64,000 nucleotides of DNA from positions 248,001-312,000 of the forward strand of contig NW_026860931.1 of assembly GCF_026571515.1 (NCBI RefSeq), in the 5' to 3' direction. The notes under the pieces were generated by a model. The model was not told where the DNA came from, made no database searches, and saw only the letters and a list, made by a program, of their open reading frames with translations. Source of the stretch: Ruditapes philippinarum (lineage: Eukaryota). Shown here in pieces: positions 34,201 to 40,200 of this stretch (position 1 is its first letter; every line of letters begins with the position of its first letter). The translations under genes and the position numbers were made by a program.

Positions 34201-37200
34201 TATTTGCAGTGCATGGCAGCTGGCAGCTATGTAAATATGCACTTATTTACAACATTACAATGAGGAGTACAGGTAACAAGTTATAAAATGAGAATTGCCT
34301 GCATAAACATGCATATATATGACATTACTACAGCAGTAAAACAATCATGTACAAGACCTAATTCTAGATCTTGTAGTAAATGGTGTAGAATCAAGGACAG
34401 TTACTTTCTCAAATTCTCAAATCAAGATTTATATTTTGAGTTTTTGTCATTATAATATTTTAGAAATAATATGGGAGACTTTAAACTTTGCATTTATAGG
34501 TGTAATACATTACTATGAACAACTGTTGTGGAAAAAAAATCTCACTACCACAAAAAACAAAACAACAAAATAATTTTTATCGACATTTACTTACCAAATT
34601 TTAGTTTTAAACTCCCAAATTTTCTTTTTTTACGGAACATATCCGAAAGAATATGATATCTATGTTTCACAAAACCATTTTAACATGTATGTCAAGATAA
34701 TATTACTGTACAATATACTTCATCACAACAAACTCCATTCATCCATCAACAAATGAGAGAAAAAACATATTCCTATAATAAAATCAATTTAGTTTCCAGG
34801 GTAAGCAGTAATATGTCCAAAAAATCTGTCTTCATTAGCCTAAACTTGTCATTTCTTCAATAGCTTAAACTTGTTGCAGAGTATATCCTCAGTATTCTGT
34901 TTATTAATCAGCTAAATCATTAATGTGAAAATATTCCAGCTAATTCAGTATTTTTATGTCGTTTGCCCTATTATAAGTTAAATTTTAGTATGATACCAGG
35001 AAAACAATATAAATATTTAGAAGAGAAAATATCCCTGTAACTGTCACACTATCTTCAGAAACACTGGTATCATACTCCAAGTCAAAAGCTAAACTCAATA
35101 ATAATATGTTTTTATTACACATGTAGCAATAAGAATGTTTTCACTTTCTACTGTATTATATTCTCCTCCTTAAAACATTCAATGAGAATAAATGCAAACA
35201 ATGTTAAAGCAAAATTTATTGCTTTTCTCTAATCAATGTAAATTAGACATTATCAGTTTAATTAAAACTTATCCAACAGTTAAATAAAACAAAACAGTTT
35301 AAACCACAATATATGTAAAGATATATGTAACATAACACCACAGTTTGCTTGGCTGTCTGTCAAAATTTCATCAATAAATATCCATTACTTTTTTTCTATC
35401 TATTTCCTTGTAAACCTGAGGGAGAAGAGAAATCCCTCCTGTGGCCAAGATTGAATAAATAAAACAAATGAGACCTCTGTTTCTGTGAATCTTCCTATGT
35501 ATGGCATTAAATAATTGCATTTACTAACTTTATACCTTACAGGTAAACTTATTATCTCTCTCTTTATATATATATACTAAATATGTCCCCAGGTGGCCAT
35601 CTTCTGCTATAATATGCTGTAACTTTAAAGGTGCAGTCTCAAATATTACAACATTTTGTACAACATGCAAATTTTGACATATGGTAAGCCAAGAGCCAGA
35701 AGTTGTTAATTCAAAATGAAATTAAAAATCTTATTCACTTGGAGAAAGAAGAGTGAACAATTTAAAATGTCCAAAATTTGTTAAAACCTACAAGATCTGG
35801 ACTTCAATGTGTTACATTTAACTGCAACCATATAAAACTAAATTTAAAACAAGATTCACATTTTAAAATGACAAAATCAATGTATTAACAAAACTTCTTT
35901 TTTCAAAAACAACTGTAGAAGCTTTTTGGACTTTTCAACTTCAATTGATTTTTACTGAAATGCCAATATTGGTTATTTTTCTATATCTGACTTGAACAAC
36001 GATTGCTGGATTACCAAAGGAACAATTGAATTATTTTCCTCTTTTTCTGAACAAAATCTGAATGATGATTCAAAACAATACATATACTTTATAAGTTTTA
36101 AGTACTTTCATAAATAGATGACAATATTTAATTAACCTGTGAAAAAATATGGCAAAAATAGTGTGCAAAGTTAGCTGACATGCCTTTACTATACTAACAT
36201 AGGTATAATGGACACATTTATTAAGGTCATCAAATATGGATGTTTACCTTTAAAACTTGTTTATCTAATCAAGACAGTGAGGACATGACCTTCATCCTAG
36301 AATCAGGTCAACTAATAATCTATATAAGCATGTATTACATCATCACATCAACAGATGTCCAGCATTACACTGTAGTCAGGCATCACAGAAATGTGAGTAT
36401 AAATCAAACATTACATGTTGTACAATTTGGGGAACATGTTAGCACTGACATAATGTACATGTAGCATACAACCAATCTGGTCTGCAGCCTAATTATATCA
36501 TTAAAAGACAAAATTTGTTTACATTGTCATACATGTGACTTTTTTGATGATCAAGTGGGAGATTTTTCTTCAAAAAGAGGGACATTTTAGAATTTGAAAT
36601 AAACAAAGAAGGAAGTTCTGACATCAAAAATAGTGAAAATACCCCTTATTTTAAGAATTTTTTTTGAAAATATGGCTGCAGAAAGCTGAAAGTGGGAGAG
36701 TTCACATGTATGCATTGTTTTAAGGTTAATATGTCACACCAACAAAGTTTAAGGTCATATAATTCTGGAGACTGTCATATGATTGAATGAAAACACATAT
36801 ACACACTTTTAATTGAGTGTATCAGTTAACAGAAATAGGATTTCAGTATTACTAGTACCCTTGTACTATGGTTGGGTTTGATTGAGTTATCATTTTACAA
36901 ACTTGGTCAACAATGTTCATAATATAATGGTCATATAATAGTATAATCTTTAACAATGATTATATGAATATGTTTTGTTATTTTTTGGATGGTCACACCA
37001 ACACAGATAGTTTTTCTGTTGGAGGAATACCTCGGGGTGCTTTCCATGCCTTATTTGAACATTATTTTAGGCACAAACTGTCACCTGAATATAACCAAGC
37101 TTCCTAATTAGGACACTTATGAAAACATGCACAGCTTAGGGTTAATCCACTCTTCTGTGAATTTTGACTTTATCTATATATTAAACTGTAACTTTACATG

Positions 37201-40200
37201 GAAATGTAAAGACAAACTACATTAAAATGTTCACATATCTATGAGATTTTTCTATCACTTGGGTAAAAGTAGTGTTATATTCATGTGAAATGAGACCAGT
37301 TCCTCTATATATAAATGCATAGAGATATAAACACATATCTTTGTTTCTATGTAACCAATTTTTCTATTCAAAATCAGCAAACAATTATTTACAACCTCTA
37401 ACTGTGCATTTTATAATTGTTCTTTATTTGAAATCCATTAGGAAAAAAGCAAAATAAGATTAACATATTTGGTGTCAATTATTGTTATTATTTCATTTAA
37501 ACAGTGAAGATACCACCTGTAACAGGTAAGTTTATTTGTTTGGAAAAAGACAATTACCAGGTCTGTAACACTAGACATAATATTATAATCTCTCAGACAG
37601 AATGGTCTGGTGGCAGACAGTTATCCATTATGAAATTGTAAATGTTAGGGGTTGAGGTAAAGTATCATCATGATAATTCCAACAAGCTTTTCATGATCAA
37701 CATTATCATCCTCATCACCATCACCATCATCAATGTTATTACCATCAACTGTTTCAAACAGTATCATCACATTTTTCAGCTACATCATCATCATCTTAAT
37801 CTCTATAATAATTATCATTACCATCATCACAACATTATCATTATTAATGCAAACAACATATTCTTTGCCAGCAGTATCATTATCATTTGCACCATCAATT
37901 TAGTCATCAACTGTAACTTTTAAGCAAATAAAATTTTCAATTAACCACATAGTGCTGCAGTAACATAACAACCTTTCAGAATTAGTGATGGAATATATGA
38001 CTTAATGTATGAACATTGTACTTTACAAACATTTAGTTTGCCTGTTGTCAGCAACAGATTTAACTTGTGTGGCTATTGCAGACCAAGATCAGCTGTGATG
38101 TCTGCTATCTCATCATGGTCTGCATGGTTTGTTCAAGTCAGTATTAATTTTAATATTTCCCCTAAAACTGATAATGACATTGTTCAGATGGAGATGTTTG
38201 AATCTATTCAAGATAAGTGTAGTGTGGGGCCTACTCATAATAACAACATAGTTTAGATAACAAACTTTGTCCTTGGTAAGTATTATTAAACAATAACAAC
38301 CTTCAATATATGTACATAACACTTGTTTTATATATTTTATTACAGTTTAATGTTTAAGCATTTCTCACCTAACATTGGTCTGGGAAATCTCGCTTGTTGT
38401 TTTCTTATAACAGACAAAAAACAACACTTATTATTGGCAAATGGATCATCTTCGTCTGTTATATGGAATTCAATATTTAGAATACAGCTGAAAAACTATT
38501 CTATTAATTACTTTCCCAGACATAAAACACCAAAACTTTCAGTTAAAACGCAAATAAATCATGATTTTTATGCACTTTTCTTCTTCTTTTTTTTTACAAT
38601 AGCATGGTATATCAATAATGTATTACTGTCTATTATGTAAACATCTTTCAGTTTAATTTGAGGGAAGTTTCAACAAAAATTATTTTGTTTGTTTTGGGTT
38701 AGTGCAAGTTTTTACCATATTAAAGTCACTTCTCACCAAGGCAATGGGAGTCGGACAGAAAGCCTCCTATCTAGAAATGGCATAGTAGGTGACAAAAATA
38801 ATCTAAGTAAAAATGGACATAACTCCTAAAATACTGCTCTCAGGATAATGCCCATTGTCCTCAAATGATAATCAAGTATACCAAGTTTCATGTCTTTTAT
38901 AGTTTTTGAAAAAAATGTCAAATATTTAAAAGGGGTTAAATTGTTTGTCAACATAGCCCTGAATAATTATTGGATTTCCATGACATTATTGCATGCAATT
39001 TTATTAAATTTTATAACCCTGGTATTGCATGTAAGAAATTAGTGAACTTCCATTGATGCAATGCTGATCCAAGTTTAAATTTCCATGACAATTGATTCAC
39101 ATGTAAGTATTTATGTAGTGCATGTCCATGCCATTGTGTTGCATTTTATTCTGGAAATCATATTGTAACATTAAAAAACAGAACCTTGATAATTCTACAT
39201 GTACAGAACTATAATACATGATACATGGAATTCTAATAACTTCAGAGTAGCCTCCCCTTAAAAAAAGTATGTAAATTTGTAGATCATTATCAGTGTTGTC
39301 CAGACAACAAATTACTTTGTTTAACCTTAATATCTGATTTTTTGTTTACTGTCATACTAATGCATGTCATGTAAATGTAAAATAATATAACTATTACTTT
39401 ACAGTGGCATTCACCATTGCAATAAGTAATTTACATGTTCAAAATGATTACCATATGCCCAACCACAAAATGAGATAAAAAATCACCTTGATTTTCTTAT
39501 GGAAAGGTAGGATGGAATCCTACTGGGCTTTACTTAAAAAACCTCGACCTTTGAACTCAATACAGTCTGGGCAATGAAGCATTACCTCTGAGCATTTTCC
39601 ACCTAAATATAACCCCCCCCCCCCCCAATTTTTTCTTTTATATTCACTTATGCCAAAAGTAAGAGACACCATAACAATATCCTAATGAAATTTGCTATTT
39701 GACAAAAAATAATATGCAATAATTAACAACTTGAGTATTGTCACCATTGTGCAGCAAAAAATGCATGAAATTCCTGCACATGGTTAAACAACTTGAAAAT
39801 TTCCCCTCTTACAGGTACAATCCTCCACCCCCCAAAACAGAAAAAGCCCTGATTATTTACGTTTATATTACATAAAAATAGACTCACCTAAGGAATTAAA
39901 CCTCAGTCTAAGACTTAGTTTTCTGCGACGTTTAAGTATAGTTGACATGTCTTCTTATACAATCAACCCCCGCACGATGGATCTATCCCAGTCTCTAGTT
40001 TAAACTCTGCCTCCCAGTTCTCTAAAAATTCACGCACAAACTGCACTATGTCAAAGTGATTCAAATCAGGCAGAATAAAACGCCAAAATATACTATCTTT
40101 CATTGGGTTATATATCACAAAAAGTCAAAACTGCAAACAACATGTACGTAAAACATCCACTGTTGTTATGCACAATCCTCTTATCCTACACACACAAGAT

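Follow-up and report, generated by a model that had tools for sequence, protein, structure and literature searches.

What short sequences does an AMPK gamma gene place at the start of its product, and what might they do there? This question is raised by a 64-kb stretch of DNA from the clam Ruditapes philippinarum (the window, to whose positions coordinates refer). The function of AMPK-gamma N-terminal extensions has been called largely enigmatic (PMC13142926). The AMPK-gamma gene lies on the minus strand of the window, where the RefSeq isoforms of R. philippinarum map exon by exon. The product is an AMPK gamma subunit: isoform P0013 aligns exon by exon at 87-100%, and the nucleotide-binding core of CBS domains matches solved gamma-1 chains at E=1e-124. 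A 26-kb intron of this gene contains two small exons, A and B (Table 1), each of which encodes a basic cluster followed by alternating hydrophobic residues. The feature is real, expressed and conserved. In the reading that we somewhat favor, A and B are alternative first coding exons spliced in frame to the same exon, and the tag that they encode is a mitogen-activated protein kinase (MAPK) docking motif, most probably for p38.

The first-pass annotation had proposed that exons A and B are joined to a common acceptor at 27930, and both junctions are found in RNA contigs. Four sequencing runs, picked by a search that selects holders of exon A, were examined. One of these, X3, is RNA on record, and X2 is RNA by guess only. 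The junction of exon A (27930/39888) is present in contigs of both X2 and X3, and that of exon B (27930/34595) in a contig of X2, in each case with CT..AC ends; junction A is therefore seen in two of two informative runs and junction B in one of two. In X3, a single contig of 1,912 nucleotides runs from exon A into the core. Contig depths in X2 are 23 for A, 12 for B and 122 for the shared exon. The remaining runs, X23 and X24, gave no joints with 4-5% of each run read, and their flat depth (under about 3) and GATC-bordered loose ends resemble those of DNA libraries. They were set aside as uninformative for junctions and strand. The contigs that contain exon A stop at 40324 in both runs. Acceptor-like sequences occur near 40275 and 34772, and the contigs read through both. 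The exon B leader in X2 is 855 nucleotides long and contains 17 upstream ATGs, so the real start of B is probably closer to its own ATG. Because contigs cannot show transcript starts, strand or levels, internal promoters and tissue switching for A and B are what we infer, and the earlier term "first exon" holds in the sense of first coding exon and not of a transcript start.

The ATGs, the phase-1 donors and the peptides of both exons read as the annotation had described them. Both exons join in frame to the acceptor ttacag at 27930, and in both an in-frame TAA lies upstream of the ATG. Exon B is already present in automatic gene models. The intron contains eight ATG-to-phase-1 GT(A/G)AG candidates, among which A and B alone combine a basic cluster with LxLx[FIL]. 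None of 300 Markov shuffles yielded even one such candidate, for a pattern that was picked post hoc, after the peptides had been seen. The string SL[RK]L[RK]F occurs in the six frames of the 64 kb in A and B only. The shuffle result, together with conservation in bivalves and gastropods and gene models in several species, makes it hardly credible that the exons are chance intronic open reading frames or spliced noise without function. What speaks for noise is that junction B comes from the single run X2, which is RNA by guess; conservation largely refutes it.

The conservation extends across two molluscan classes. The exon B peptide is identical at 15 of 15 residues in Mya, Dreissena and a RefSeq model of R. 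philippinarum (P0001, P0008, P0026), and the exon next to it is only 83% (Mya) and 74% (Dreissena) identical. A-type starts were found at the counterpart of acceptor 27930 in nine other mollusc species, seven gastropods, an oyster and a scallop: two species of Patella, Haliotis, Biomphalaria, three of Elysia, Azumapecten and Magallana. The Haliotis peptide matches exon A in the window at E=2e-7. The common A-type form is 14 residues long, with SLRLRIP as the usual molluscan ending. The alternating hydrophobic positions and the Ser/Thr are kept in all A-type peptides, with Ser in every case but one, which has Thr, and the basic residues follow the order K-K/R-R-K with striking stability. Nine of nine counterparts have Ile as the last hydrophobic residue, and none of the nine has an aromatic residue in the motif. 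Altogether, the motif occurs in 13 of the 329 proteins fetched and in 9 of the 28 distinct short N-termini at this acceptor, where other molluscs also have motif-free starts. The peptides are conserved in related species.

Exon A is likely an old mollusc exon, and B a later second copy in the clam lineage. This is the simplest history, and the DNA cannot separate duplication from convergence. Several results weigh against it. A trace of an A/B duplication was looked for in the DNA of the coding parts and leaders and was not found. The likeness of A to B is no greater than the peptides force (score 25 against a null mean of 28), which agrees with the little DNA similarity described earlier. A and B have been seen together in R. 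philippinarum only. For Mya, Dreissena and Mercenaria the isoforms listed are part of each cluster, and among these no A-type form was found; nor was a B-type form found outside R. philippinarum, Mya and Dreissena among the 329 proteins scanned. Neither form is present in the cluster members of Octopus (15 of 15 listed), chiton (7 of 7), Pomacea (9 of 9) or Gigantopelta (10 of 10). A K-rich form of Elysia chlorotica might have been the gastropod version of exon B, but its congeners show that it is a drifted exon A, and this reading was rejected. The exon B region also has a second genomic copy at 94% identity (L011, G000:C10693). It is probably the other allele left uncollapsed, because it carries a 7-base insertion where X2 has one; the coding exon differs at no position, over too few bases to carry meaning. 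One genomic match each was found for exon A and for the large long-isoform exon.

Docking to a MAPK is the most likely role of the tag, and a nuclear localization signal (NLS) is its main rival. Under the tight motif definitions of PMC4670726 (Appendix Fig. S2), clam A and five of five tested counterparts fit the MEF2A, MKK6 and NFAT4 types, and the exon B peptides fit the MKK6 type only, in three of three species. All nine peptides therefore fit at least one of the two tight types of the greater MEF2A class (MEF2A or MKK6). Composition-keeping shuffles (100,000 trials) fit one of these types in 9% of cases for A and 1.3% for B. The NFAT4 class, which binds JNK, is fitted by clam A and five of five counterparts, along with 13% of composition shuffles, and by none of the three exon B peptides. 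By class, then, both exons are predicted to be of the p38/ERK "greater MEF2A" kind, and only A is also predicted to be of the JNK-binding NFAT4 kind. Of the partners named earlier, p38 and ERK would suit both exons and JNK would suit A only, so the kinase range of A and B may differ.

The closest precedent is human gamma-2. Its residues 28-37 are a validated MEF2A-type docking motif that binds p38alpha and ERK2 and not JNK1; the isoform without the motif loses binding, and deletion of the motif lowers phosphorylation by p38 (PMC4670726). This is the gamma-2 sequence that the first-pass annotation had cited for comparison, and its standing as a p38alpha/ERK2 docking motif supports the docking reading. 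The gastropod ending SLRLRIP matches the human core SLRVHIP at five of seven positions. The Ile at the last hydrophobic position likewise suits the predicted docking.

Other observations count against docking. The consensus is loose, and its authors caution that it yields many false positives (PMC4670726). The sole Ser-Pro kept in all eight short isoforms examined lies 2-4 residues past the motif. As a rule of thumb, this distance is probably too close for docking-driven phosphorylation. Two more sites, at 24 and 40-43 residues from the motif, occur in only three of the eight proteins, so the kinase may act on targets in other subunits, or the tag may serve as a scaffold. Nor is the consensus enriched in the 102 distinct first-exon peptides of long isoforms, with 15 seen against 17.6 expected. 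This count, in which the peptides are not independent, led to the rejection of a proposal that long-isoform first exons mostly carry MAPK docking motifs as well. Lastly, the invariant KKRK-type stretch equally reads as a textbook NLS.

That stretch gives the main rival its strength. The tag would be mainly a classical monopartite NLS that takes AMPK with a short gamma subunit to the nucleus and is gated by phosphorylation of the adjacent Ser. All nine peptides tested fit K-(K/R)-x-(K/R), as defined in PMC8535671, and the stability of the K-K/R-R-K order favors an NLS. The same pattern arises by composition alone in 16% (A) and 60% (B) of shuffles, and an NLS leaves the conservation of L-x-L-x-I/F in all species unexplained. 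We consider this reading unlikely as the main role, and an overlapping NLS is possible, as the two functions can coexist in one tag. It is more doubtful still that the tag is a phospho-regulated polybasic element, a PKC or PKA site that would bind acidic membrane or the cytoskeleton, or fold back on the alpha kinase domain as an autoinhibitor. The string S-L-[RK] is common to A, B, the human gamma-2 motif and mouse gamma2-3B. Moreover, the A-type peptides fit PKA- and PKC-type patterns, and the exon B peptide has seven basic residues and three Phe. Gamma2-3B was found in the cytoskeletal fraction (PMC3477313), and the gamma-3 N-terminus has been reported as autoinhibitory (bioRxiv 10.64898/2026.08.16.744724). 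However, exon B fails both phospho-patterns, the motif of the nine A-type counterparts lacks an aromatic residue, and the strict hydrophobic alternation would better suit a groove-binding strand.

Recruitment of a phosphatase through a PP1-binding RVxF motif, which had also been put forward, is very improbable. Clam A and all B peptides fit a relaxed RVxF pattern that allows Leu, and the terminal Phe of B is invariant in three species. None of the nine peptides fits the strict form [RK]-x(0,1)-[VI]-x-[FW], and nine of nine A-type counterparts have Ile where PP1 needs Phe or Trp. On these sequences a conserved PP1 site is excluded, and a PP1 site would be at most a gain of the clam lineage.

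The tag lies 60-73 residues N-terminal to the CBS core, beyond the part that solved structures match. If it docks a MAPK, the following mechanism may be proposed. Internal promoters would produce short gamma subunits in which the tag takes the place of the long N-terminus of roughly 200 residues. The basic residues of the tag would bind the acidic docking patch of the kinase, and the alternating hydrophobic residues would bind its groove. The AMPK trimer would then be kept beside the kinase, which could phosphorylate Ser/Thr-Pro sites of the linker or of the alpha and beta subunits. A basophilic kinase (PKA or PKC) could plausibly turn docking off by phosphorylating the conserved Ser. Phosphorylation by PKA within a kinase-interaction motif has precedent (PMC2168101, PMC3207433). 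The annotation had envisaged a switch that swaps tags. Splicing of short tagged forms agrees with this, and the swap does not, since A and B bear the same kind of tag. The switch would chiefly be between tagged short forms and long forms, rather than between two different tags. That a 14-residue tag is near-constant over gastropods and bivalves and occurs twice in clams indicates an interaction under strong selection, and the tag may offer a small handle on cross-talk between p38 and AMPK in animals exposed to hypoxia and osmotic stress. The open-access literature yielded no description of this motif in molluscs.

Isoform-specific AMPK-gamma N-termini are already known in mammals (gamma2a, b, c and 3B; PMC3477313, PMC13142926) and flies, as is an isoform-specific docking motif in human gamma-2. 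What is new is that molluscs have the motif, that an internal first exon carries it, that it is stable across two classes and that the clam has it twice. Human gamma-2 (PRKAG2/AAKG2) belongs to the same family, has the same order of basic-S-L-R-hydrophobic-x-I-P, and its motif is present or absent according to the isoform start. The block just after the human motif is found in molluscs, with 11 of 13 residues identical in Haliotis and 8 of 13 in R. philippinarum. However, the human motif precedes this block on the long isoform, whereas the mollusc motif is on internal first exons that skip it. The clam also has two motif exons, one of which fits the JNK-type consensus too.

Mammalian gamma2-3B resembles the clam arrangement in that an alternative exon in an internal intron is joined in frame and replaces the long N-terminus (PMC3477313). 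Both gamma2-3B and exon B start with basic-F-G-S-L-basic. Gamma2-3B lacks the alternating hydrophobic run. Because B is found in three related clams only and the widespread A lacks FG, the short match is probably convergent rather than inherited, and exon B as a gamma2-3B homologue is unsupported among the 329 proteins scanned. In Drosophila, SNF4Agamma (loechrig) is one gamma gene with alternative N-termini, one of which is non-redundant (PMC3435293), in line with the parallel drawn by the annotation. The HAAILF block of insect proteins resembles HAIIY of the clam acceptor exon; the insect proteins fetched (cluster representatives only) contained no motif of the A/B type. PDE4 gains or loses a JIP1-type docking motif by alternative exon or start (PMC4670726), in another protein, with another motif class and one exon per gene.

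The comparison with gamma-2 also bears on the origin of the motif region. According to Table EV3 of PMC4670726, cyclostomes and lower lineages lack the region that bears the human motif, and Fig. S7G points to MEF2 as its likely source. The 13-residue flank in molluscs undermines a MEF2 origin for the flank and conflicts with the vertebrate-specific proposal. The flank leaves inheritance of the motif itself unproven, because the motif sits on a different exon tier. A profile search with the long N-terminal exon returned 50 relatives at E<=0.001. RefSeq mollusc isoforms use the downstream Met as a start, and human gamma2c does likewise (PMC13142926). We raise, tentatively and with more doubt than belief, that the bilaterian ancestor already had a p38-docking first-exon module. 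The human gamma-2 motif and the A/B tag of molluscs would then derive from one cassette, and a gamma-2-like layout, with a first-exon tier before the DLS..AMPL exon and a second internal tier like 3B, would predate vertebrates. If true, this would overturn a vertebrate gain by MEF2 recombination, and the direct wiring of stress kinases to AMPK by promoter choice would be more than 500 million years old.

Similar strings were seen at other starts. First exons of Mya and Dreissena (P0032, P0041, P0046) end in K-L-K-[IL]-K-I directly before DLS..AMPL, which is the position of the human docking motif; in the R. philippinarum copy of one of them (extended coordinate 96990), S replaces L. Two proteins of siboglinid annelids (P0164, P0165), in which the junction lies one exon further downstream, start with a basic cluster and alternating hydrophobics (KRRMKLKL) and may carry a parallel tag. 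Among 102 mollusc long-isoform starts, 3 contain strings like PxIxIT (a calcineurin-type pattern), where 0.5 would be expected, and variants of PPVFTFTVTD recur in oyster, scallop, abalone and octopus.

Table 1. Exons of the AMPK-gamma gene in the 64-kb window of R. philippinarum.
Feature	Position	Strand	Details
Exon A, as covered by RNA contigs	39888..40324	-	Coding 39948 (ATG) to 39888, 20 codons + 1 base; phase-1 donor TAG/GTGAGT after 39888
Exon B, extent in a single RNA contig; 5' end uncertain	34595..35495	-	Coding 34640 (ATG) to 34595, 15 codons + 1 base; phase-1 donor TTG/GTAAGT after 34595
Shared acceptor exon	27797..27930	-	Ser-Pro-containing linker; conserved NEPKSAP and DHSHAIIY blocks
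34-nucleotide micro-exon, long isoforms	54070..54103	-	Phase-1 donor joining acceptor 27930 in RefSeq models
Large exon, long isoforms	54648..55208	-	Begins with the block that comes after the docking motif in human gamma-2
AMPK-gamma core exons, CBS-domain region	5233..26669	-	From 26669 down to the last coding exon near 5271-5233

In the RefSeq models of the long isoforms, the large exon and the 34-nucleotide micro-exon precede acceptor 27930, and their alternative first exons lie beyond the window, where the adjoining 60 kb of the contig contain at least five. Exons A and B form a second, internal tier, in which 15-20 residues stand in for about 200. The loci L002-L007, about 3-59 kb past the window end, hold at least five of these first exons together with a 9-codon cassette exon of the long isoforms. 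An additional candidate first exon at 49219 (minus strand), outside the RNA-covered stretch, encodes nine residues and has a strong phase-1 donor, CAG/GTGAGT. Within the CBS core, an optional micro-exon of 7-8 codons (17092-17069, minus strand) is present in some RefSeq isoforms and absent from others. Long tandem repeats occupy introns at 41917-42450, 46409-47450, 50505-51500 and 59316-61021, with periods of 31, 28, 37 and 88, and high-copy repeats lie in introns near 36.3-37.0 kb and 43.6-45.6 kb. On the plus strand, a 220-codon open frame (58402-59061) resembles, by eye, the C-terminal part of a non-long-terminal-repeat retrotransposon protein.

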